A stretch of 64,000 nt of DNA from Bacteroidales bacterium. Lineage in GTDB: Bacteria; Bacteroidota; Bacteroidia; Bacteroidales; UBA932. Made by a program: the position numbers and the translations under genes. This document shows, in pieces, positions 30,414-63,105 of this stretch. Location of the stretch: NCBI GenBank assembly GCA_023667095.1, contig JAMPAT010000002.1:47097-111096 (forward strand), written 5' to 3'. The notes below the pieces were generated by a model. That model saw nothing but the letters and a program-made list of their open reading frames with translations, searched no databases and was not told where the DNA came from. Numbering within the stretch: the first letter of the stretch is position 1; the number at the start of each line of letters is the position of its first letter.

Positions 30414-33400
30414 ATGACAAGTAACCGTAGTATTATATATTCCATAATATTGCTATTTGCACTTTATGTCCTGTGCGCGCCAGGCCTGGCCGCACAGGAC
30501 AGTTCCGGTGCAGAGATGACAACAATTTCAGGAAAGGTAATAGACGCTGCAGACGGCTACCCCCTCATCGGTGTCAGTGTAATGACCGACGGTTATGGCG
30601 CAGCGACAGACATAGACGGAAAATTCGAGCTGAAGCTCCCGGCAAGGAAGTGTGAGATAACATTTTCATATATAGGCTATAAGAGCATAGTCAAGGAATT
30701 TACCGTAAAAAATGCCTCATCATTCTCCAGAATTGTCATGGAGGCCAGCACAACGGAGCTGAACGATGTTGTCGTAACCGGCGTCTATGAAAGGAAAAAG
30801 GAAAGTTTCACAGGCTCATCCGCAACATTCAAGGGAGATGAGCTTAAATCAGTAGGCTCGCAGAATGTACTGCAGAGCCTCAAGACACTTGACCCGTCCT
30901 TCAAGATAATGGAGAGCAACCTGTTCGGTTCAAACCCGAACATGATGCCGGACATAGAGATACGCGGCAAGACCAGTGTGATGGGGCTCAAGGAGGAATA
31001 TGGTTCTGACCCGAACCAGCCGCTGTTTATCCTGGACGGATTCGAGACAGACATCGAGACTGTCATGAATCTGAACATGAACCGTGTGGCATCAGTCACT
31101 ATCCTCAAGGATGCGGCATCGACTGCAATCTACGGCTCCAAGGCCTCCAACGGAGTTGTGGTCATCGAGACCAAGGCCCCTGCAAGGGGACGCCTGCAGA
31201 TTTCATATAAGGGAGACTTCGGGCTCTCAATCGCAGACCTGACTGACTACAATCTGATGAATTCATCGGAAAAGCTCCAGTTCGAGACACTTGCAGGTGT
31301 CTACAGGGACAATACCGGAGACCCGTTCAAACAGCTCCAGCTGGACAACCTGAGGAACGAACGTCTGAAAAGCATAAAGATGGGCGTTGACACATACTGG
31401 CTCAGCGAACCTATACGCACAGGCTTCACCAACAAGCACAATGTCTATGTCGAGGGAGGTGAGGAAAAGATACGCTATGGAATAGGCCTGAGCTACGGTG
31501 GAGTCCAGGGAGTCATGAAGGGCTCCGACAGGAGCACAATCGAGGGCAACATTGACCTCATATACAGGACAGGAAAGTTCCAGTTCAGCAACAAGCTTAC
31601 AATCAACAGCCTCAGCACTGCCGACCCTGCGGTTTCCTTCGAGGAATACGCACAGGCGAACCCGTACTACCGGAAATACAGCGCCGGGGGGGGCATTGAA
31701 AAATATCTTTACTATCCTTCTGAGGGCATTGATGACTATCCTGTATCGAATCCTCTCTGGAATGCGCACCTCAACAACTACGACAAGACAGCTGGATTCG
31801 GATTCACCAATAACTTCATCTTTGAATGGTTCATCCTGAAAGAGCTTCGCTTCAGGGCCAAGTTCGGTATAAAGAAGAATGACGAGAACCGGCAGACAAG
31901 GCTTTCACCGGAGCATACACAGTTTGATGATGCAGGTGAAACTGAAAAAGGCCTCTATACGCACGCGCTTACAAAGGATTTCACATACGAAGGCGATGCA
32001 GCCATAACATACGGAAAACTGTTTGCCGGCAAGCACATGGTCAATGTAGTCGGTGGCTTCAATTTCAGCAACCGGAAATACCTTGACTACAGCTATTCCG
32101 CAACTGGATTCACAGAAGACCAGTTCGATGCCCCTTCATTTGCCAACGGCTATCCTGCAGGCAGTGCTCCGGATTACGGAGAGACACACAAGAGGGCAGT
32201 AAGCTTCTACCTGAACGGAGGTTACTCATACGATGAAAGATATCTGATTGACGTAAACTACCGTCTTGACGGCGCGTCAATGTTCGGTGCAGAGAACCGC
32301 TTCAGGAACACATGGTCAGTCGGAGCAGGATGGAACATCCATAAGGAAAAGTTCCTTACTGACAAGACAGACTTCTTCCAGATACTCAAGCTTAGGGCAT
32401 CAGCAGGAAATCCGGGAAACCAGAATTTCTCGGCATACCGCGCATTCTCCACATACAAGTTCAATGGATGGATGACAAACATATTCGGTGCCGGTGTCAT
32501 TGTGAAGAACCTTGGAAACAAAGGTCTTGCATGGCAGGAAACGATTAACTATGACCTTGGTACCGATATCACGTTCTGGGGAAGCCGGATCAACATAACA
32601 TTCGACTATTTCTGGAAAAACACGGACCCTCTGCTTGCAATCATCTCCACAAAAGGCTCGATGGGAGTCAGCACAATTGCGATGAATGCCGGAGGACAGA
32701 ACACAAACGGCTGGGAGGCGACATTCAAGATCTCCCCGATATACCGTCCATCAGAAGGCATCAACTGGAACATAAGCCTGAACGCCACCAGCTCGAAGTC
32801 AAGGTACGTAAACATCGGCAATGCATTCAGTTCATTGAATGACAGCGGAAAGACATCCCTTGCCGGAACGACACGATACTACGATGGAGGAAGCCCTACA
32901 GCAATCTGGGCTGTCCGTTCTGCAGGCATTGACCCGGCTACAGGAAAGGAGCTTTTCATAAAGAAGGACGGCACATATTCATTCACATACGATACAAATG
33001 ACGAGGTTGTTGTCGGAGATACCCAGCCAAAGATAGAGGGAGTGCTCGGCACGACCCTGTATTACAAGGGGTTCTCTGTCGGATGCTATTTCAGGTACAG
33101 GCTTGGAGGGCAGACATTCAACTCCTCTCTGTTCCAGAAAGTGGAGAACATCGGCACAGAGGAGGTCTACAACAACCAGGACAGGAGGGCACTGTATGAC
33201 AGGTGGTCTGCAGACAACAGGGAAGCCTATTTCAAAGGCATCTCGATGGTGCAGAAAACAGACAAGTCATCACGGTTTGTCATGGACGAGAACACCCTGA
33301 CAGGAGAGTCATTCAATGTCGGATATGAGTTCCCGGACCGTATGATAAGGAAGCTGCATATCTCCGCACTGTCACTGCAGATGAGCCTGAATGACATATT

Positions 33401-33485
33401 CCGCGTATCATCTGTACGTATAGAAAGAGGTATCGACTATCCTTTCGCAAGGACCGTCTCATTCTCACTTGGAATAACATTCTAA
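30414..33485 (+). CDS. SusC/RagA-family TonB-dependent transporter
   Basis: 1023 aa; carboxypeptidase-regulatory-like domain, plug domain (VVVTGVYERKKESFTGS), barrel. Starts 6 nt after the sppA stop. Contains an in-frame G8 tract at 31686-31693. Confidence 0.9.
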   Translation: MTSNRSIIYSIILLFALYVLCAPGLAAQDSSGAEMTTISGKVIDAADGYPLIGVSVMTDGYGAATDIDGKFELKLPARKCEITFSYIGYKSIVKEFTVKNASSFSRIVMEASTTELNDVVVTGVYERKKESFTGSSATFKGDELKSVGSQNVLQSLKTLDPSFKIMESNLFGSNPNMMPDIEIRGKTSVMGLKEEYGSDPNQPLFILDGFETDIETVMNLNMNRVASVTILKDAASTAIYGSKASNGVVVIETKAPARGRLQISYKGDFGLSIADLTDYNLMNSSEKLQFETLAGVYRDNTGDPFKQLQLDNLRNERLKSIKMGVDTYWLSEPIRTGFTNKHNVYVEGGEEKIRYGIGLSYGGVQGVMKGSDRSTIEGNIDLIYRTGKFQFSNKLTINSLSTADPAVSFEEYAQANPYYRKYSAGGGIEKYLYYPSEGIDDYPVSNPLWNAHLNNYDKTAGFGFTNNFIFEWFILKELRFRAKFGIKKNDENRQTRLSPEHTQFDDAGETEKGLYTHALTKDFTYEGDAAITYGKLFAGKHMVNVVGGFNFSNRKYLDYSYSATGFTEDQFDAPSFANGYPAGSAPDYGETHKRAVSFYLNGGYSYDERYLIDVNYRLDGASMFGAENRFRNTWSVGAGWNIHKEKFLTDKTDFFQILKLRASAGNPGNQNFSAYRAFSTYKFNGWMTNIFGAGVIVKNLGNKGLAWQETINYDLGTDITFWGSRINITFDYFWKNTDPLLAIISTKGSMGVSTIAMNAGGQNTNGWEATFKISPIYRPSEGINWNISLNATSSKSRYVNIGNAFSSLNDSGKTSLAGTTRYYDGGSPTAIWAVRSAGIDPATGKELFIKKDGTYSFTYDTNDEVVVGDTQPKIEGVLGTTLYYKGFSVGCYFRYRLGGQTFNSSLFQKVENIGTEEVYNNQDRRALYDRWSADNREAYFKGISMVQKTDKSSRFVMDENTLTGESFNVGYEFPDRMIRKLHISALSLQMSLNDIFRVSSVRIERGIDYPFARTVSFSLGITF

Positions 33486-33497
33486 ATTTCAGCTGAT

Positions 33498-34952
33498 ATG
33501 AGAAAGAACACCATATATATTATTATAATGTCCTTTTTGCTGTGCGGTGTCTGCGGATGCGGCAGATGGCTTGACATCAAGCCATACGATGAAATGGCGG
33601 AGGACGATCTGCTGTCTACGGAAAACGGCTTCATCAGGCTTCTCAACGGCATCTATATAGAGCTGAACACAGATGCCCTGTATGGAAGTTCGCTGACTGT
33701 GGAGATGATAGAAATCATGGGAGGTGCCTATGCAATAGGCACGGACAATGCCGTATGGGGGAACTATTACGACCTTTCCGTATACAGATACGGGACAGAC
33801 TACTGGAGGCAGCGTTTCAGCAGCACATGGGACAAGGCATACGCGATGATCCTCAACTGCAATCTCCTGCTGGAGAACATCGACAAGGAAGAGAAGAAAG
33901 GCCTTTTCAGCGGGGATAACCGCAATATAATAAAGGGAGAGGCACTTGCATTGAGGGCAATGCTGCACTTTGACATGCTGAGACTGTTCGGGCCTGTATA
34001 TGCAAACAGCCCTGATGCCATTGCTATCCCATACTACACGGCGTACACCACGGTTCCGGAAGCAATGCTTCCGGCTTCGGAAGCTGCCGGCAAGATAATG
34101 GCCGACCTGAAAAATGCACGTATCCTCCTTTCATCAGACCCTGTAAGGACAGAGGGGACAAGGATGGACGGCCCTTCAGATGGGACATCCAATTTCCTTT
34201 ATTACAGAAATCTACGTCTCAACTACTATGCAGTGACTGCACTCCTTGCACGTGCAAGCCTGTATTTCGGCAACAAGGCAGATGCATTAACATACGCTAC
34301 AGAGGTCATCGGGGCATCTGGCGCAGGCATATTCCCGTTTGTGGACCGTACGCTTGTAACTGGTTCACCTGCCGACCCGGACCGCATATTCTCGTCAGAA
34401 GTCATTTTTGCACTTTCACATGCAAGGAGGAATGAACTTTTCAAGAACTGGTACGACCCGAGCAGGATGCCGAACTATGTATTCCGCATGGACAATGACG
34501 TCTTCTCAAGGATTGTCTACGGAGGTTCACTGACTGGAGGAAGCCTTGACGACTACAGGTGCAGGGCAAACTGGATTGCAAGCGGTTCAAACAGGTATTT
34601 CTACAAATACTCCGACATGGTGGAGACTGGGAATATCCGCAACACCATGGTTCCCCTGATAAGGCTCGGGGAGATGTACCTCATTGCAGCGGAGAGCCAG
34701 TCAGAGAATCTCGGCAACGGCCTGCAATATGTAAACACTCTGCGGAGCAAACGCGGAACAGGCAACCTGCCGTCACTTACACAGGAACTTCTGCAGTATG
34801 AATATATACGCGAGCTATACGGCGAAGGACAGCTGTTCTTCATGTACAAGAGGATGTTCTCCCCTGTCATAAAGTCTGCAAACGGCAACAATCCGCAGCC
34901 AAGCGACGAAATATTTGTAGTACCAACCCCAGATACAGAAACACAGAACTGA
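33498..34952 (+). CDS. SusD/RagB-family outer-membrane lipoprotein
   Basis: Lipobox GVCGC; SusD-like TPR N-terminal region; 484 aa. Confidence 0.85.
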   Translation: MRKNTIYIIIMSFLLCGVCGCGRWLDIKPYDEMAEDDLLSTENGFIRLLNGIYIELNTDALYGSSLTVEMIEIMGGAYAIGTDNAVWGNYYDLSVYRYGTDYWRQRFSSTWDKAYAMILNCNLLLENIDKEEKKGLFSGDNRNIIKGEALALRAMLHFDMLRLFGPVYANSPDAIAIPYYTAYTTVPEAMLPASEAAGKIMADLKNARILLSSDPVRTEGTRMDGPSDGTSNFLYYRNLRLNYYAVTALLARASLYFGNKADALTYATEVIGASGAGIFPFVDRTLVTGSPADPDRIFSSEVIFALSHARRNELFKNWYDPSRMPNYVFRMDNDVFSRIVYGGSLTGGSLDDYRCRANWIASGSNRYFYKYSDMVETGNIRNTMVPLIRLGEMYLIAAESQSENLGNGLQYVNTLRSKRGTGNLPSLTQELLQYEYIRELYGEGQLFFMYKRMFSPVIKSANGNNPQPSDEIFVVPTPDTETQN

Positions 34953-35707
34953 TGAAGAAGACAAGAAAAATATTGTATCTACTGCTTCTGCTGGCCTGCA
35001 TTTCATGTACAGAGGAGCATCCACGCCTGTTCGAGGAAATCAACGGCGTATATTTCAATTTCCGTAGCGGAGGGCTGCAGACAGACAGCACGTCAGTGAC
35101 TTTTGTCTACGAGAACGGTACTGAAATGGAGATTCCTGTCACGGTACAGCTTCTCGGAAGACCGGCATCATACAGCCGCAGCGTCAGCATAGGAGTATTC
35201 TCAGACAATGCAACGGAAGGCATCGACTACATATTGCCGGAAAGCTCAATAATGGAAGAAGGTGCCATAAGCCTTGAATACCGCATCAGATTGCTCAGGA
35301 CAGATGCACTGAAAAACTCAGAAAAGAGCATACGTCTGGAACTGCATGAAAACAATGATTTCACGCTTCCTGTACAGGAGCTTGAGCAGACCTCCGGGAA
35401 AATTTCCATAACTGCATTCCTGATTAAATTCTCCGACAGGTTCACAGCTCCTCCCGCGACATGGAGCACAAGCATCCTCGGCGAATTTTCCCAGCAGAAG
35501 TTCGAGCTTATATGCAAGGCGCTGTCCATTGAACCGGCATCATTCAACAATGCCGATGAGATGACACTTGCCAAGCAGGCATATATTTTCAACGAGATTA
35601 CTGCCTACATCAAGGAAGAGCTTGCAAAGATGGAGGCAGGACAGGACTATGACCACGACATCATAGACAAGACAACAGGACTGCCTGTCGCATTCCCTAC
35701 AGAATAA
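34952..35707 (+). CDS. DUF4843-like lipoprotein
   Basis: Lipobox LACISC; 251 aa; position and size match the conserved SusD-DUF4843-PKD-like-TlpA arrangement of Bacteroidales. Confidence 0.6.
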   Translation: MKKTRKILYLLLLLACISCTEEHPRLFEEINGVYFNFRSGGLQTDSTSVTFVYENGTEMEIPVTVQLLGRPASYSRSVSIGVFSDNATEGIDYILPESSIMEEGAISLEYRIRLLRTDALKNSEKSIRLELHENNDFTLPVQELEQTSGKISITAFLIKFSDRFTAPPATWSTSILGEFSQQKFELICKALSIEPASFNNADEMTLAKQAYIFNEITAYIKEELAKMEAGQDYDHDIIDKTTGLPVAFPTE

Positions 35708-35709
35708 AG

Positions 35710-37269
35710 ATGATGAACAGATATATTTCAATAATGCTTGCCATGTTCCTTGCCGCCTCATGCGCCAGGGATCTCGGCAACTACAAATACCACGGGCTGG
35801 ACACCCCGTCAGTGTCAGGCATAGACACTGACATCAGTGTACTTACACAGGAAAGGCTCCTGATATCACCGTCCATAGAAAACGGGCTTTCACCGGAGCA
35901 ATATGAATATGAGTGGAAGGCTATTGACAAGAATATGGACATGTCAGCTACAGTAATAGGCACAGAACGCGACCTGGACTATATTGTGACACTGGCACCT
36001 GCCGAATACTCTCTCTACTATAAGATTACAGAAAAGGAGACAGGCATATACTGGATGACAGAGGCAAACATGACAGTAAGTTCGTCTATGACAACAGGCT
36101 GGATGGTACTATGCTCCGACTCCGGTGCATCAAGGCTTGACTTCATATCCGATGTCACTGGCCTGACCTATACCGATGTCCTTAAGGACAACAAGGACAT
36201 GCCGAAGTTCAACGGGCCGAGGAAAATACATTGGCAGAATACCATGGCCGATGCAAATTCTCCATACTACCTGTTCACGGACGACGGTGCGACAAGGCTC
36301 GGGAAGGATTCATTCGAATGGGAGAAGGAATACTCCATGATGTACGAAATGGCGACAATGGAGAATGTTGCCCCATATTCAATGGTATCAGCAGGATTCG
36401 GCAGGATGTTCGTAAGCGGGACCGATGCATATTATTGCGAGACAATGGGAATTGCAGGGCTTTTCGGAAGCCCGGTAAACAAAGGCTTCAGGGTTGCTCC
36501 GTATATAGGGGCAAATGTCTCCGGAATCCAGTATGCAGCCGTACATCTGCTGTATGACATGGACAACAGGAGATTCATGGCCTACTGCCCTCTTCTGGCG
36601 AAGAATGACCTTGGTGCACAGGAACCTCTTGCCGGAATGGATGAAATGGGCAAGATTGCAGAAGGGCTGGCAAAGGAAGGTGAAGCAAGTGTCGTCGGGA
36701 CAGCCTTCGACAGATATCCGGAAGGGTATGACCTGATATATATGGAAAACACACTCTATGATCCTGGCAACGGAAAGATGGGAATCACCTATTCAATCCT
36801 TGCAGACGGGGACAGACGCTATGTATATGGAATCCAGCTCGGGGACATGCTGCGTTTTGCAGACTGTACATACGTACTCGGGAAAGCCTGCTATGGGGAC
36901 ATTTCCGGCTGCCAGGGCATCACAGACGGGAATGCAATCTTTGCATTCAGCTCACTTAAAGGCTATATGTACTATGCCATCGGAGACACAGTCTACTGTG
37001 CGGACCTGAATGCCGGCCCGATTCAGTCAACTCCGATGATAAGGCTTGCAGGAGAGAGAATCACGATGCTCAAGTTCAACCTCTACAGGCAGGCATCAAA
37101 CAGTCTGCGCAGCTATGACCTGGTTGTAGGCTCGGAAAAGGAAGGAGCCGGTACACTCAGGATATATGAAGGATATGAATCAGACGGTGACTTCTCCAAT
37201 GTCACCCCTAAGGTCTATAGCGGATTTGCAAGCATTGTGGATGCAACCTATAAAGAACGTATTAATTAA
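35710..37269 (+). CDS. PKD-like family lipoprotein
   Basis: Lipobox LAASC; 519 aa; N-terminal Ig/PKD-like beta-sandwich then a larger domain; paralog of the partial gene at 63175-64000. Confidence 0.6.
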   Translation: MMNRYISIMLAMFLAASCARDLGNYKYHGLDTPSVSGIDTDISVLTQERLLISPSIENGLSPEQYEYEWKAIDKNMDMSATVIGTERDLDYIVTLAPAEYSLYYKITEKETGIYWMTEANMTVSSSMTTGWMVLCSDSGASRLDFISDVTGLTYTDVLKDNKDMPKFNGPRKIHWQNTMADANSPYYLFTDDGATRLGKDSFEWEKEYSMMYEMATMENVAPYSMVSAGFGRMFVSGTDAYYCETMGIAGLFGSPVNKGFRVAPYIGANVSGIQYAAVHLLYDMDNRRFMAYCPLLAKNDLGAQEPLAGMDEMGKIAEGLAKEGEASVVGTAFDRYPEGYDLIYMENTLYDPGNGKMGITYSILADGDRRYVYGIQLGDMLRFADCTYVLGKACYGDISGCQGITDGNAIFAFSSLKGYMYYAIGDTVYCADLNAGPIQSTPMIRLAGERITMLKFNLYRQASNSLRSYDLVVGSEKEGAGTLRIYEGYESDGDFSNVTPKVYSGFASIVDATYKERIN

Positions 37270-37279
37270 ACCACACATA

Positions 37280-38626
37280 ATGAAAAGGTATCTTTTTATA
37301 TTGGCAACGCTCCTCCTTGCGGCCTGCAAGCCGTCCTCACAGGAGATAGAAATAGAGATCGAGGCAAAGAATCCGTCTGAGAAGATGGTGATGCTTGTCT
37401 ATCACAAGACACTCTGTCCTATTGACCTTGACGATTCAGGATACGGGAAATGCACTCTCCACGGGATGGACGCAGTGTATGCAAAGGTATTCTACGGAAT
37501 GGCCAGCAAGAATATCTACCTTGAGAAGGGAGACAGGGTAAAGATTTCCTTCGACGCAAAGGACTTTGCCGGGACATTCACGTTCGACGGGGACAAGGCT
37601 CCAGCTGTCGGATATCTCAACGCTGTCACTCTGGCTGAGTTCCAGCCAGAAAAATTTGCATTGCCGTTCGATGAGTTCCAGACTATGCTCACGGAAATGG
37701 AGAACAATGCAGTCAAGATTCTTGATGCACACGACATGCGGGGTACAGGGAAATTCAGGAAAATGGAAAAAGGCAGGATAAGATATTCATATGCATGCCC
37801 TCTATTGGTATATCCTGTCGGCCATGAGCTGATGACACAGGAGCATTTTGAAACTGACGGAACATATTACGGGACAATACGCAGATATGCAGTCGAGGAC
37901 AATGACCTTGTTGACATTGACCAGTACCGTGAATTCATGTCTGAGGCTGCACACCAGCTCGACATAAACGGACGTGACATCAAGGAAATGTATCCGAAAA
38001 CCGTAGCCAGCATGCGCTATATTGCGGACAACAGCAAGAGCACCAAAGTGAGGGAAAACCTGCTGCACCATATCGCTGCACCATATGTGGAAATCTATGG
38101 TACAGATAACATCCAGGAGCTGTCCAACATCTACACAACATATGTAAAGGACACATCCCTGATTGCTGACTTCAGGCAGAAATGCGACATCTGGGACTAC
38201 ACAAAGCCAGGTAAAAAGGCACCTGAGTTCACTGCCGTTGACATTGAGGGAAATAAGCACCATCTTAGGGAATTCCGCGGCAAATATGTCTATATAGACA
38301 TCTGGGCGACATGGTGCGCACCATGCAGGGCTGAGCTTCCTTACCTCAAGGAACTTGAAGCCAAGTTCAAGGGCAGGAACATCGTATTCCTCGGGCTTTC
38401 AATAGACCAGGACAAGACAAAATGGGAGGAAAAGGTAAAAGGCGGAGAACTCTGCGGAGAGCAGTTCTATCTCGGTCTTGAGAGCGATTTCCAGAAAAGA
38501 TTCAAGATCAACGGAATCCCGCGTTTCATACTTCTTGACATGGAAGGAAAGACAATAAATTCCGACATGACACGCCCATCTTCTGCAGAGACAGTCTCCA
38601 CACTTGAAAATCTGGAGAATATATAA
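37280..38626 (+). CDS. TlpA-family thiol-disulfide oxidoreductase lipoprotein (thioredoxin fold, WCAPC)
   Basis: Start chosen at MKRYLFILATLLLAACK (lipobox LAAC) rather than the track's 37166, which would overlap the upstream gene. C-terminal thioredoxin domain with WATWCAPCRAELP and a conserved cis-Pro region GIPRFILLD. Confidence 0.8.
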   Translation: MKRYLFILATLLLAACKPSSQEIEIEIEAKNPSEKMVMLVYHKTLCPIDLDDSGYGKCTLHGMDAVYAKVFYGMASKNIYLEKGDRVKISFDAKDFAGTFTFDGDKAPAVGYLNAVTLAEFQPEKFALPFDEFQTMLTEMENNAVKILDAHDMRGTGKFRKMEKGRIRYSYACPLLVYPVGHELMTQEHFETDGTYYGTIRRYAVEDNDLVDIDQYREFMSEAAHQLDINGRDIKEMYPKTVASMRYIADNSKSTKVRENLLHHIAAPYVEIYGTDNIQELSNIYTTYVKDTSLIADFRQKCDIWDYTKPGKKAPEFTAVDIEGNKHHLREFRGKYVYIDIWATWCAPCRAELPYLKELEAKFKGRNIVFLGLSIDQDKTKWEEKVKGGELCGEQFYLGLESDFQKRFKINGIPRFILLDMEGKTINSDMTRPSSAETVSTLENLENI

Positions 38627-57586: not shown

Positions 57587-57622
57587 AAAGTCACCTTTGC
57601 CAGGACAGAGGTGACTTTTTTT
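57587..57622 (+). terminator. rho-independent terminator of the infB operon (10-bp stem AAAGTCACCT/AGGTGACTTT, then T7)
   Basis: Read from the sequence. Confidence 0.7.
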
Positions 57623-57800
57623 GATAGATGCCAACTTTTATATAGCCGCAGGATACCGGTACCGACTTGTATGTATTTAATGAGGAATAATACCTACAAA
57701 ATGGTACAGCAATCGTACTAATTACATATTTTTGACTATATTTGCCCAGGTTAGCAGTGTTGTAATCAGCAGAAACCGGTTTGGTTATTCTATTTATTGG

Positions 57801-60800
57801 ATGAAAAGCAGATATTTAGTGATGATATTGGCAGTACTTTTACTGCCGTTCAGCTTAATGGCCCAGACAAATTCTCCGGCACAGTCACCGGGGGGGGGCA
57901 TCAAGAATTCTTGTAGGAGTCGTCAAGGACGAGCAGGGCAAAGGACTGCCTGGAGCTGTCGTCTACATGAAGGACAATCCGTCAAAAGGTACAGAGACTG
58001 ACAGGTTCGGTAATTTTGAACTCAAAGGCATTCCAGAGGGCAGGCATACACTTGTCTTCAGCATGCTGGGAATGACAGAGGTGGAAATACTGTACAATGG
58101 ACAGGAGAGCACAATTGTCACCCTTAAGGAAGAGGCCACCAGCATCGAGGATGTCGTTGTCACAGGTATAATCACTAGAAACAGGAACAGCTTTACCGGT
58201 TCGGCATCTACATTCTCAGGCCAGGAACTGAAGAATATCGGTACAACTAACATTCTACAGAGCCTGAAGACCCTGGAGCCATCAATGACTATCGTTGAAA
58301 ACAGTCTCAGGGGAGCAGACCCCAACACTATGCCTGACCTGGAAATCAGGGGAAAGACGAGCATTGTGGGAGACCTGGAATCCGACTATGACAATGTCCC
58401 TAACCAGCCCCTGTTCATCCTCGACGGAATGGAGGTAAGCATTGAGTCGATTGTAAACCTCAACATAGACAGGGTAAAGAGCGTCACGGTCCTGAAAGAT
58501 GCAGCCTCTACGGCAATATACGGCTCCAAGGCGGCAAACGGTGTAATCGTCGTGGAGACCATTCCGCCTGAGCCTGGACAGCTGAGAGTCAGCTATTCCG
58601 GAAATTTCGGAGTCCAGTTCCCTGATCTGAGCGACTACAACCTGATGAACGCCGCGGAAAAGCTCCAGTTCGAAAAGCTTGCCGGACGGTACACATCCAA
58701 GACAGAGACAGAATCACCTGAGCAGGATGCCCTTGATGCGCTCTACTATTCAAGGCTTAAGGCAGTACGGGAAGGCGTGGACTCATATTGGCTGTCAGAT
58801 CCGCTGCGTGTAGTGTTCAACCATTCGCACAACCTGTACGTGGACGGAGGAGACCAGAACATGCAGTACGGAATCGGCGTCAACTATGGCAATGACAAAG
58901 GTATCATGAAAGGCTCGGACAGGGATATTCTCGGAGGTGACATACAGGTACGCTACCGCAAGAACAACTTTACATTTGCCAACAACTTCAACCTGACCCT
59001 GGTCAATTCCGATACGGAACCTGTGTCATTCGACCAGTTCGCAAACGCGAACCCGTATTACAGGAAAAGGAATGACGACGGCTCTGTGCCTCTCCTGCTT
59101 GAATCGACTGCAGTTGCAGGGACTACCATATACAACCCCCTTGCTTTGTTCGGGATTACAAATACGAACCACACCAAGGACCTGTCCATTTCAGACCAGC
59201 TTGACCTTACATGGAGATTCCTCGGGGCATTCTCGCTGCGCGGGACATTCGGATTCACCAAGAGCATATCCGAGACGGAGGCATTCAAGTCCCCTGACCA
59301 TCCGGACTTCACAGGAAGCGTTGCGGACAAGAAAGGCCTGTATTCAGCAGACAAGAACGACAATTTCAACTATAACGGCAGGATTGTGTTCAGCTACGGC
59401 AAGCTCTTCAAGGGTCAGCACAATGTAAGCGCAAATGCAAGCTGGGATTTCAGCAACAAGGACCTGAAACGCACAGGATACAGCATAACCGGATTTGTCG
59501 GCGACCAGCACATGAACCCGGCATTCTCTGCAGGCTTCGACCAGGGCACGAAACCGACATATTCCAGCTCCCGTTCGCGTGCGACCGGATTCCTCGTAAG
59601 CGCAAACTACGCATACAAGGGCAGGTACATGATAGACCTCAACTACAGGCTTGACGGCTCGTCCGTGTTCGGTGCACAGAAAATGTTCACAGGGACATGG
59701 TCACTCGGTGCGGCATGGGACATAACAAACGAAAAATGGTTCAAGGTAAACTGGATAAGCTACCTGAAGATAAGGTACTCAGTCGGAAACCCTGGCAACC
59801 AGAACTTCGATGCATACATGTCTTCCGGAATATACGAATACAATCCGGACTACACCAACATATTCGGAGAGAGCGCAATCCTGCAGAAGGCTGCCAACAG
59901 CAACCTTGCATGGCAAAAGACCCTTGACCAGAACTGGGGTCTGGACTTCACAGCATGGGAAGACAGGATAAGGCTGACATTTGACTACTACCACAAGAAT
60001 ACCAATCCGCTTTTAGTGTCAATCACCCTGCCTCCCTCTGCAGGACAGACAAGGGCATACACGAATCTCGGAGGGCAGATTTCACAGGGATTCTCCGGAA
60101 TAGTCAATGTCGTGGCACTGAAGACAGAGACCATGAGGCTCGGAGTGAATGTCTCATACAGCCATAACACATCAAGATATGTCAATATAGGCAACAGCCT
60201 GGAGTTCATGAACCAGCACGGAAGTTCCGAGGTATTCAGGAGATATTACGACGGGGCAAGCCCTGACGACATATGGGCAGTGAGGTCACTCGGCATCGAT
60301 CCTGCTACAGGGCGTGAACTGTTTCTCACAAAGGACGGTGAATATACATTCCAGTACAATGCCGATGACGAGGTTAAGGTAGGCTCAACAGCACCTGACC
60401 TTGAAGGTGTTGTCGGGCTGTCATTCTACTATAGACAGTTTTCCGCAAGCATAAACTGCCGTTATCAGCTTGGAGGACAGACATTCGCATCTGCCCTATA
60501 CAACAAGGTGGAGAATCTCAGCGAGCAGCAGCTGTACTACAATGTGGACAGGAGGGCACTGTATGACAGATGGCAGAAGCCTGGCGACAATGCCAGGTTC
60601 AAGGCGATAGACAACCTTGACACGACTCCCATGTCATCCCGATTTGTCCTTGACAACAATGTATTTACATTCGAGTCCATTTCAGTAGGATATGACACTA
60701 ATGCAAGATGGCTGCAGAAAATCAGGGTGCAGGGAGCATCCATACGGCTTTATGCCAACAATATATGGAGGATTGCCTCAATAAAGGAGGAGCGCGGGAC

Positions 60801-60852
60801 CGAGTATCCGTTCTCCAACAGTGTCTCATTGTCAATCAGCTTAAGGTTTTAG
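57801..60852 (+). pseudogene. SusC/RagA-family TonB-dependent transporter interrupted by a +1 frameshift inside a G9 homopolymer (57890-57898)
   Basis: Frame 0 gives the signal peptide MKSRYLVMILAVLLLPFSLMAQTNSPAQSPGGG. The rest of the protein (..ILVGVVKDEQGKGLPGAVVYMKDNPSKG.. through the C-terminal LRF) is in the +1 frame (track ORF 57967-60852). Removing one G restores a single 1017-codon ORF. Candidate -7 boxes at 57727-57734 and 57737-57744. Confidence 0.55.
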
Positions 60853-60856
60853 GAAA

Positions 60857-62338
60857 ATGAAAAGATATATTGCATATATTGCAGCAGCTTCGGCAATGCT
60901 GGTTCTCCATTCATGCAAGGCTTGGCTGAATGTAGATTCAGAGGACAGGATCCTGGAGGAGAGGCTATACAGCAGTACAGACGGATTCTACACTGCCCTA
61001 AACGGTGTCTATATCGACCTCGTGAACGAGAACCTGTACTCAGGTACACTTGCCCCTGCAGCATCAGACATCATGGCACAGTACTATGATACAAATGCTG
61101 ACACCCATACATACGGTTCACTGGCAGGATTCCAGAACGAGGCCAAGAGGAATGCGGTAAGCGGACTATGGACAAGGGCATATTTCCTGATCCTGAATAT
61201 CAACAAGATTATCGCCCGCTGCGATGAACGCAAGGGCAGCGTACTGAATGAGACAGACTACAACCTCATAAAAGGCGAATGCCTGGCACTGCGTGCCCTG
61301 CTGCATTTCGAGCTTCTGAGATATTTCGGGCCTGTATTCTCCGTCTCTCCGGGAGCAGACGCAATACCATATATGACAGACCCGGACCCTAAGGTAGGCC
61401 CTGTCCTTCCTGCAACAGCAGTAATGTCAAGGCTCAATGCAGACCTGGAAGAATCCATGGGACTTCTGGCCATCAGCGACCCTGTAATAAGTTCAGGAAA
61501 GAATGACGTAGACAACGGAGGAAGGAACCTCTATGGCTTCAGGAACCTCCGGATGAACTATTTTGCCACAAAGGCCCTTGCTGCGAGGGTGAACATGTAT
61601 CTCGGCTATCTTGAGAACTATCGCGCAAAAGCCCTGCAATATGCGGAGGAGGTAATCAGGGATGCAGCAGTATTCTTCCCGTTCTCGACAAGGGAAGAGG
61701 CAAACGGCCAGGCTGCCACAGGAAATGTAAACACCTCATCAGAAGACAGGGTCCTCTCATCGGACATACTTTTTTCAGTCTACAATGTAAGGCGCGGAGA
61801 GGACATATATGAGAAATATTTCTATAACACCCTGGAAATAAACAGGCTTCTCGCCATATCGGAGAGAGGCTACAACAGCATGTTCCCGGAAGAGGGAGAC
61901 CTCAGGACATTCCAGTGGGCAAGGAAAAAGGATGCACTCGGCAACGATGTAATATGCCTTGTAAAATATGAGGCAATGGAGGTTGACGGGAAGAGCTATC
62001 CATATATGATTCCGGTGCTGAGGATGGCAGAGATGTACCTGATAGCTGCAGAATGCCATAACGCAGACGGCAATACAGGCCTGGCATACCAGAGGCTGAA
62101 CACACTGAGGAACGCCCGCCAGACATCATCCGTCAACACTGCAATAGAAGCCAACATCGAATATGAATATATCCGTGAATTTGCAGGGGAAGGACAGCTT
62201 TTCTGGTATTACAAAAGGAAGAATGCCCAGACAATCACAGCCATTTACGACAGGAGCAGACCCGACATATCAATCGGCACGGAAGGCTACCTGTTTGAAC
62301 TTCCGCAGGCTGAGGACGGATTCAGGGACAAGAAGTAA
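60857..62338 (+). CDS. SusD/RagB-family lipoprotein (paralog of 33498-34952)
   Basis: Lipobox LHSC; shared blocks with the first SusD (ALRAxLHFxxLRxFGPV, EMYLIAAE). Confidence 0.85.
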   Translation: MKRYIAYIAAASAMLVLHSCKAWLNVDSEDRILEERLYSSTDGFYTALNGVYIDLVNENLYSGTLAPAASDIMAQYYDTNADTHTYGSLAGFQNEAKRNAVSGLWTRAYFLILNINKIIARCDERKGSVLNETDYNLIKGECLALRALLHFELLRYFGPVFSVSPGADAIPYMTDPDPKVGPVLPATAVMSRLNADLEESMGLLAISDPVISSGKNDVDNGGRNLYGFRNLRMNYFATKALAARVNMYLGYLENYRAKALQYAEEVIRDAAVFFPFSTREEANGQAATGNVNTSSEDRVLSSDILFSVYNVRRGEDIYEKYFYNTLEINRLLAISERGYNSMFPEEGDLRTFQWARKKDALGNDVICLVKYEAMEVDGKSYPYMIPVLRMAEMYLIAAECHNADGNTGLAYQRLNTLRNARQTSSVNTAIEANIEYEYIREFAGEGQLFWYYKRKNAQTITAIYDRSRPDISIGTEGYLFELPQAEDGFRDKK

Positions 62339-62343
62339 AAGAA

Positions 62344-63105
62344 ATGAAAATGAAGGCATACATATATATCATAATGTTTGCAGCAGGCATGGCAATAGCC
62401 GGATGCACTGACGCTCTTGAGACATACAGCGGCACTTCCGGAGTGTATTTTGCGATGGGTGCCGGCAAGACATACGCCAATGCAGACACAACATACGTGG
62501 AATCTTCGAACCTGCCCTTCATTGTGACCGGGAGCAGGGACTCCGTATTCAATGTAAAGATAAAGATTGTCGGAGCAGTCTCACAGCATGACAGGAATGT
62601 CGAGGCAAGGATAGTCGAGGACATGTCTACAGTGACTGCAGAAGACTATGAACCGCTGCAGGGAAGCTATGTGCTGAAAGCCGGTGAGGTATTCGGCAAC
62701 ATTCCCATCAGGTTTCTTCGCCCATCCTCACTGGAGGGGAAGCAGAGGACAATGACTATCGAGCTTGTCGAAAACAGCGACTTCTCGCTCCCGATAAGGT
62801 TCTGGCGCAACTCCTCCACCGAATATGTCAATGTGACAAGGCATTCAATCATTGTGAGCGACAAATACGTACAGCTGCCCGGATATTCCGAGAGCCATTT
62901 CGGTGCATTTTCCGAAAAGAAGATGAAGATTCTGCTTGATCTTTTCGGGATGAAGCTGACTGACTTCAATGCAAGCCTGCCTCTCACCATGACAAAGGCA
63001 ATGGGACAGAAATTCGACCGATGGCTCCAGGAACAGAAATCAAAGGGAGAGACAGTATATGAAGAAGACGGCTCTGAAATGAAGTCCGGAGAATATATAT
63101 ATTAA
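62344..63105 (+). CDS. DUF4843-like lipoprotein (paralog of 34952-35707)
   Basis: Lipobox IAGC; 253 aa; same position in the cluster. Confidence 0.55.
   Translation: MKMKAYIYIIMFAAGMAIAGCTDALETYSGTSGVYFAMGAGKTYANADTTYVESSNLPFIVTGSRDSVFNVKIKIVGAVSQHDRNVEARIVEDMSTVTAEDYEPLQGSYVLKAGEVFGNIPIRFLRPSSLEGKQRTMTIELVENSDFSLPIRFWRNSSTEYVNVTRHSIIVSDKYVQLPGYSESHFGAFSEKKMKILLDLFGMKLTDFNASLPLTMTKAMGQKFDRWLQEQKSKGETVYEEDGSEMKSGEYIY

Follow-up and report, generated by a model that had tools for sequence, protein, structure and literature searches.

A poly-G tract behind the signal peptide of a SusC/RagA transporter gene as a likely phase-variation locus in an uncultured gut Bacteroidales lineage

A 64-kb stretch of a Bacteroidales contig (JAMPAT010000002.1, assembly GCA_023667095.1), referred to as the window throughout, contains two SusC/RagA transporter genes, SusC1 and SusC2, with a long run of G inside each. 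In SusC2, nine G occupy positions 57890-57898 of the window (...cacagtcacc GGGGGGGGG catcaag...), the longest homopolymer of the window, where the signal peptide meets the first domain. The ATG at 57801 opens the signal peptide (MKSRYLVMILAVLLLPFSLMAQTNSPAQSPGGG...) in frame 0, and translation in this frame meets a stop at 58001 after 66 amino acids (aa), while the +1 frame from 57898 onwards (ASRILVGVVKDEQGKGLPGAVVY...) is free of stops up to 60852. The initial annotation had read this as a frameshift splitting the second SusC, with the removal of one G restoring the transporter, and both statements hold. Deletion of one G in silico yields a 1016-aa open reading frame (ORF) with CarbopepD_reg_2 and Plug domains (Pfam), which matches SusC/RagA structures in the PDB (8aa4_A at E = 6e-49) and is identical to the proteins P0318 and P0319 of conspecific genomes. 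With its CarbopepD_reg domain, Plug, large barrel, and adjoining SusD-like gene, SusC2 belongs to the SusC/RagA TonB-dependent transporters. The tract length sets its product, which is 66 aa with G9 and 1016 aa with G8; the in-frame lengths are G5, G8, and G11, and G9 shifts the frame. The NCBI entry for 57967-60852 is a 961-aa SusC/RagA protein (MCM1501368.1, P0315 in our set), in which the signal peptide and the beginning of the first domain are missing, and it is not flagged as frameshifted.

The paralog SusC1 was correctly described beforehand as carrying eight G in frame (31686-31693, ...agcgcc GGGGGGGG cattgaa...). It is intact with 1023 aa, and its tract encodes A-G-G-G at aa 424-427 (Gly-Gly-Gly at 425-427); a G9 tract would terminate the protein at aa 428. 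In both genes, the length of a simple sequence repeat within the ORF thus determines the reading frame. The claim that both genes share the same motif stands only in part: a 13-mer (CCGGGGGGGGCAT) is indeed common to both tract sites, but the sites lie at non-homologous positions (mid-barrel in SusC1, signal-peptide junction in SusC2) and are read in different frames. The 13-mer was also considered as a shared functional motif or recombination site and was rejected, because the 5' flanks differ among the orthologs and the two genes use different frames. The coordinates of all features are collected in Table 1.

Table 1. Features of the SusC1 and SusC2 loci in window coordinates.
Feature	Position	Strand	Basis
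SusC1 paralog, 1023 aa, intact, 43% identical to SusC2	30414..33485	+	Same as NCBI MCM1501349.1
SusC1 G8 homopolymer, GGG GGG GG-C, in frame (ON)	31686..31693	+	Sequence; OFF alleles in conspecific and related genomes
SusC1 partner genes: SusD-like 33498-34952, DUF4843 34952-35707, PKD_2 35710-37269	33498..37269	+	Pfam
Terminator-like hairpin and T7 after infB	57587..57622	+	Inverted repeat I1, 13 nt, 92% complementary; T7 at 57616-57622
Two overlapping Bacteroidetes-type -7 boxes, TATTTTTG and TATATTTG (putative promoter)	57727..57744	+	Pattern TANNTTTG; ~57 nt upstream of the SusC2 ATG
SusC2 start codon and signal-peptide coding region, frame 0	57801..57889	+	N-terminus same as conspecific P0319/MCM1198242.1
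OFF-state product, 66-aa peptide of signal peptide and out-of-frame residues	57801..58001	+	Translation
SusC2 G9 homopolymer, frameshifting (OFF) length	57890..57898	+	Sequence
SusC2 body, frame +1: CarbopepD_reg_2, Plug, barrel	57898..60852	+	Pfam, PDB matches
SusC2 partner genes: SusD-like 60857-62338, DUF4843 lipoprotein 62344-63105	60857..63105	+	Pfam

Runs of this kind are rare in the surrounding DNA, as the initial annotation had noted. The two SusC tracts are the only G runs of at least 6 nt in the window, which otherwise contains one C6 and no G/C run of 7 nt or more. Around 0.4-0.6 G runs of at least 8 nt and 0.1 of at least 9 nt would be expected over this length. GGG is the least used Gly codon of the window (15%), and 2 of its 110 Gly-Gly pairs are written GGG-GGG. 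In approximately 316 kb of related loci, G/C runs of at least 7 nt are almost confined to the SusC tract sites.

Both SusC proteins of the window (MCM1501349.1, identical to P0271, and MCM1501368.1) are encoded on one 195,444-bp contig of a metagenome-assembled genome (MAG), and the window is therefore a MAG consensus. This raises the possibility that the organism truly carries G8, that the contig contains a spurious G, and that an intact SusC2 was never switched in the sample. In favor of such a consensus error, the frameshift is the sole one in 64 kb and lies at the most error-prone site, and two conspecific MAGs encode SusC2 in frame (P0318, MCM1177275.1; P0319, MCM1198242.1), otherwise identical to the window. 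P0319 includes the full signal peptide (...SPGGASR...), P0318 covers 997 aa, and neither differs at any position from the G8-repaired SusC2. However, no other homopolymer of the window breaks a frame (7 A6, 2 A7, 9 T6, 4 T7, and the G8); its A7 and T7 runs are all in frame or intergenic. None of the scanned ORFs other than SusC2 appears broken, so that the pattern of an artefact, several genes disrupted at homopolymers along the contig, is not seen here. Furthermore, both MAGs with an in-frame SusC2 have a truncated SusC1 (P0269; MCM1177296.1 and MCM1198849.1) of 428 aa ending in GGGD-stop, and a frameshift at the respective other tract is unlikely for a random error. At the protein level, the length of P0269 matches the prediction for a +1 slip at the SusC1 tract, and the D in place of H at its end suggests an in-frame tract of G9 and an OFF allele of G10 for that lineage. 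The states are thus reciprocal, with SusC1 ON and SusC2 OFF in the window and the opposite in the two sister MAGs, but three MAGs are too few to tell this from coincidence, which it may be.

The tracts are also found in relatives. Intact SusC2 orthologs with 74-92% identity were collected from MAGs and metagenomes under labels such as Bacteroidales and Candidatus Cryptobacteroides, and the 5' ends of these orthologs revealed a G run at the exact SusC2 site in five other lineages, always in frame. It is G8 in four of them (CCG GGG GGG GCA in L002, TCG GGG GGG GCA in L006, ACG GGG GGG GCA in L013, CAG GGG GGG GTA in L008) and G7 in the fifth (TCA GGG GGG GCA in L001). In the nearest relatives (L003/L007 with 92% and L005 with 90% identity), the tract was lost via several substitutions. 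Third positions of 4-fold degenerate codons are only 0.33-0.41 identical between the tract-bearing lineages, and a single codon is kept across all six SusC2 lineages in 7 of 270 conserved 4-fold columns. Among the 72 columns with Gly throughout, three keep one codon, and the sole all-GGG column lies within the tract. The SusC1 site behaves alike: GGG GGG GGC is present in every one of the orthologs L033-L037 (82-93% identity) and is common to four lineages, and two of 88 all-Gly columns are all-GGG, both of them tract columns, at a 4-fold identity of 0.36-0.48. One sublineage of SusC2 orthologs carries a C7 at the SusC2 tract site (GTA CCC CCC CTG, Val-Pro-Pro-Leu; L012:4073-4079). At the matching site of L010 and L015, a C5 codes for Pro-Pro. 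The codon statistics, the census of the window and the related loci, and the convergent poly-C indicate a repeat that is conserved or over-represented against neutral expectation.

Judged by these codon comparisons, the tracts are kept at the nucleotide level, despite near-saturated synonymous sites. This bears on a second explanation, according to which the G tracts exist merely because the proteins need Gly-Gly, slippage yields unselected dead alleles, and the SusC2 of the window is a recent pseudogene. A [DN]-G-G motif at the SusC1 site is indeed widespread even where the tract is absent, most assemblies are ON, and a 2025 review of phase variation cautions that mutation-prone tracts can be 'accidental' and not evolved switches. 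However, GGG-GGG and its flanking G's, built from the rarest Gly codon, were retained where synonymous sites are randomized, and a Pro-Pro poly-C tract evolved at the same site. A protein-level need for Gly-Gly is therefore insufficient, because the run is kept at the nucleotide level and occurs in two chemical forms at one position.

The second line of evidence is the variation of tract length on otherwise identical sequences. An OFF state was accepted only if the DNA was seen or if the out-of-frame N-terminus exactly matched the prediction. The short N-termini of P0013, P0024, and P0045 were examined as OFF alleles and rejected as in-frame start miscalls, and protein length alone was therefore never counted as evidence. 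P0248 (929 aa) was not assigned to either state and was left out of the OFF alleles. For the species of the SusC2 ortholog P0010, a MAG contig with G8 (L008) and an ENA contig with G9 (L038) differ by one gap and 0 mismatches in 5988 bp, and the G9 form is found on six contigs. The OFF proteins P0255 and P0262 begin with the out-of-frame reading of the signal peptide (MRPQSPKTHRGGVRT...) and are identical over 984 aa to the ON protein P0258. Another OFF allele of this species (P0260) represents a different haplotype and is identical to the ON proteins P0256, P0257, and P0259. Its 9-nt tract seems to be interrupted (HREGV, which implies G3-A-G5), so that P0260 is possibly a locked-OFF derivative or a sequencing error; such an interruption is also what decay of a dead allele would give. 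In the poly-C lineage, in silico versions of the L012 DNA with C6, C7, and C8 gave exactly P0340, P0328, and P0330, without a single difference along the full protein. The three versions occur on 2, 58, and 11 contigs, respectively, and with C6 and C8 beside C7, both -1 and +1 variants exist.

The same was observed for SusC1. In the species of the ortholog P0148, two NCBI assemblies (L039 and L040) and the Logan contigs L041/L042 carry G9, which splits the ortholog into 420 aa and 612 aa. The three G9 strains diverge by 1.1-1.4% at the DNA level, and for every one of the three OFF variants there is an ON protein that matches it at all positions across 599 aa. Altogether, OFF alleles occur on at least five haplotypes, each identical to an ON allele, which points to no fewer than five independent events, and such length polymorphism among otherwise identical sequences is one of the features expected of a contingency locus. 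Control clusters without a tract (P0017, P0019, P0007) displayed in-frame differences in the start call only, with the 929-aa member P0349 left aside. The coexistence of ON and OFF alleles on identical backgrounds, with changes of -1 and +1, is compatible with reversal, although the direction of change is not given by the data.

These alleles weigh on both explanations discussed so far. The +1 change is seen again in further species, in independent projects and with different assemblers, and the poly-C lineage shows -1 as well as +1 variants; a consensus error is hence considered improbable for the window, and even if it were true here, the tract would still be a conserved, polymorphic site. 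That the tracts are mere by-products of Gly-Gly is slightly less probable still, since many samples assembled into the OFF allele as the majority form (6 and 11 contigs) and the OFF alleles are spread over at least five haplotypes, each with a matching ON allele. A third explanation assumes that RNA polymerase or the ribosome slips on G9 and partly restores the frame, which would make G9 a low-expression allele instead of an OFF allele. Transcriptional slippage can arise at long homopolymers, but G9 is at the lower limit for efficient slippage, in-frame lengths prevail in the relatives, and no conserved stimulatory structure was noticed, without a search aimed at one. We regard such recoding as very improbable.

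The initial annotation had offered a sequencing error and a phase-variation switch as alternatives. Tract conservation, the length variants, the conspecific G8 protein, the SusC1 frameshift in the sister MAGs, and the lack of an invertible promoter favor the switch, and with a probability of roughly 70% we conclude that the G9 of the window is the OFF length of a conserved, hypermutable poly-G contingency locus undergoing slipped-strand phase variation. During replication, the nascent or the template strand would slip within the G run and add or remove one G. With G8 (or G5 or G11), the signal peptide would be joined in frame to the transporter; with G9, translation would end after 66 aa and no transporter would reach the outer membrane, and the SusD and lipoprotein genes further downstream might be expressed at a lower level as well. 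SusC1, with its second and independent mid-gene G8 tract, would work in the same manner, G9 truncating it at aa 428. Both tracts would be held by selection in an uncultured clade of gut Bacteroidales related to Candidatus Cryptobacteroides, and with tracts maintained in this way, populations would therefore always mix ON and OFF cells for each transporter. The likely benefit is the evasion of phages or antibodies directed against the transporter, or the sparing of the cost of an unneeded importer. The anatomy of the tracts, their conservation in nucleotide sequence, and the length polymorphism on identical backgrounds in several species are observed directly; the slippage itself, its reversibility and rate, and polar effects on the genes downstream are what we infer, as is the selective pressure, for which the function of other systems serves as a guide.

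Several observations weigh against a phase-variable locus, in addition to the caution of the 2025 review. The window is a MAG consensus, in which a +1 error at the longest homopolymer is possible, and a search of 5.8 billion proteins with the 66-aa OFF peptide gave no match. Most tract-bearing assemblies are ON, and the contigs from a pattern scan of metagenomes were G8 in 4 of 4 cases; switching therefore need not be fast. Relatives also contain SusC disruptions away from any tract, namely P0267 (924 aa, a C-terminal frameshift after FLTKD) and P0304/P0305 (898 aa, starting late at VVVTGI, on contigs of 120 kb). Separately, exact look-ups of the SusD2 and NusA of the window returned no match, and thus no unbiased sampling of the tract was obtained through its neighbors.

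Phase variation of SusC genes in Bacteroides usually relies on DNA inversion, and this was considered for SusC2 and rejected. Upstream of SusC2, the rimP-nusA-infB operon (infB assigned by Pfam domains) ends with the terminator-like hairpin, followed by the -7 boxes, of which TATATTTG lies at 57737-57744. The SusC2 orthologs have a -7 box at the same place (tatatttg or tatctttg), and we infer a promoter role for these boxes. No inverted repeats flanking the promoter were detected apart from the terminator hairpin and weak chance inverted repeats, and no recombinase domain was found among the scanned window ORFs. The conserved -7 box together with the lack of flanking inverted repeats and of a recombinase disfavors an invertase mechanism.

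With regards to the remaining neighborhood, the ortholog SusC2 loci extend past the equivalent of the window end with genes for PKD_2 and DUF5117/DUF4953 proteins. The DUF4843 partner has no relative in the PDB by sequence, and thus no tie to a solved SusCD complex. Behind SusC1, a thioredoxin-like ORF (37166-38626) overlaps the PKD_2 gene by approximately 100 nt as listed; its true start is probably further downstream, and no frameshift is evident.

The proposed mechanism is a classical one, known from Neisseria and Campylobacter; its novelty lies in the order of the host and in the gene family. In Neisseria meningitidis, the haemoglobin receptors hmbR and hpuAB are switched by the length of poly-G tracts within the ORF (PMC3786947). 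They are likewise TonB-dependent outer-membrane receptors turned ON and OFF through poly-G inside the reading frame, whereas they belong to Proteobacteria, serve iron and haem uptake, and have no SusD; rates and reversibility were measured there, while the lengths reported here stem from assembled sequence. In Campylobacter jejuni, intragenic G/C homopolymers of approximately 8-11 nt give ON/OFF variants of surface-related genes (PMC8355987). These tracts resemble ours in intragenic position and length, and the gene families differ. A bias towards +1 changes at G8 has reportedly been observed in Campylobacter and would agree with the step from G8 to G9 found here; to our knowledge, Campylobacter has no MutS/MutL-type mismatch repair. 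In Haemophilus influenzae, the hgp genes for TonB-dependent receptors carry CCAA repeats just after the signal peptide, and thus share the location of the repeat directly downstream of the signal-peptide coding region with SusC2, although the repeat is a tetranucleotide and not a homopolymer.

Within the Bacteroidales, Bacteroides fragilis and B. thetaiotaomicron use SusC shufflons and invertible promoters, with tyrosine recombinases acting at inverted repeats (bioRxiv 10.1101/2025.06.24.661302); the 2025 review cites Nakayama-Imaohji 2009 on these systems. These systems also concern phase-variable SusC/SusD proteins and act on the N-terminal region of signal peptide and CarbopepD_reg, but they do so by site-specific recombination, for which neither inverted repeats nor a recombinase were found in the window. 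In Mycobacterium tuberculosis, frameshifts in a 7C homopolymer of glpK give a transient loss of function, and this case resembles ours in that a short intragenic G/C homopolymer is affected. The 2025 review classes such mycobacterial indels as mutation-prone adaptive variation and not as true phase variation, a caveat that extends to the SusC tracts described here. In the strict sense, phase variation is defined by a switching rate far above that of basal mutation and by reversibility. Homopolymer switching of SusC in Bacteroidales was not found described in the literature covered, which is incomplete, so that this is absence of evidence only. The initial remark that a homopolymer switch would be noteworthy against the usual inversions agrees with this, as SusC phase variation in the order was found described through inversions only.

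Whether the two tracts are part of a larger system can be addressed only tentatively. It is possible, at somewhat less than even odds, that the Cryptobacteroides-like clade runs a homopolymer phasome, in which conserved poly-G or poly-C tracts, as a rule directly behind the signal peptide, switch a number of SusC/RagA transporters and other exported proteins independently of one another, and paralogous transporters tend to be expressed alternately; within the literature covered, this would be the first contingency system based on simple sequence repeats described in Bacteroidales. Further runs were noted in the related loci. On the minus strand of L012, a G8 (L012:1503-1510, gene 345-1568) lies just after a signal-peptide ORF (MMKDCTTIRIARYALPCAVLLLAVNL...) with its ATG near 1664. 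This ORF is out of frame with a 407-aa body without a Pfam match, and a G7 would fuse both; by its layout, it could represent a third type of gene for an exported protein under a poly-G switch, in the OFF state in L012. A distant SusC (P0045, 58% identical), which is found at the same type of locus and adjoins rpoA-rplQ, has a C9 run (FPPPL) inside its signal peptide (L027:1449-1457 and L028:663-671), in frame in both cases. Unrelated to SusC, a G8 (L009:2464-2471) lies towards the 3' end of a short helix-turn-helix ORF (2115-2498), in a region with an integrase-like gene. In Odoribacter splanchnicus, one and the same SusC (P0087-P0120) is found with different N-termini, namely in a 1099-aa form with an STN-type start, a 1024-aa form, and a 1020-aa form that begins with MCCSMSLTILTCSGWKFINKK..., and a frameshift or a shufflon is suspected there.

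Phase variation in gut Bacteroidales is now credited to invertible promoters and shufflons, and tools of the PhaseFinder type detect inversions only. Conserved homopolymer switches in SusC genes would escape such tools, and MAG annotation routinely dismisses them as pseudogenes or truncated proteins. If the switch proposed here is real, frameshifts at G/C runs in MAGs should be spared from 'polishing', and tract length would become a cheap marker of selection in metagenomes. Nutrient uptake as well as the targets of phages and antibodies would then vary inside clonal populations of these abundant animal-gut bacteria.

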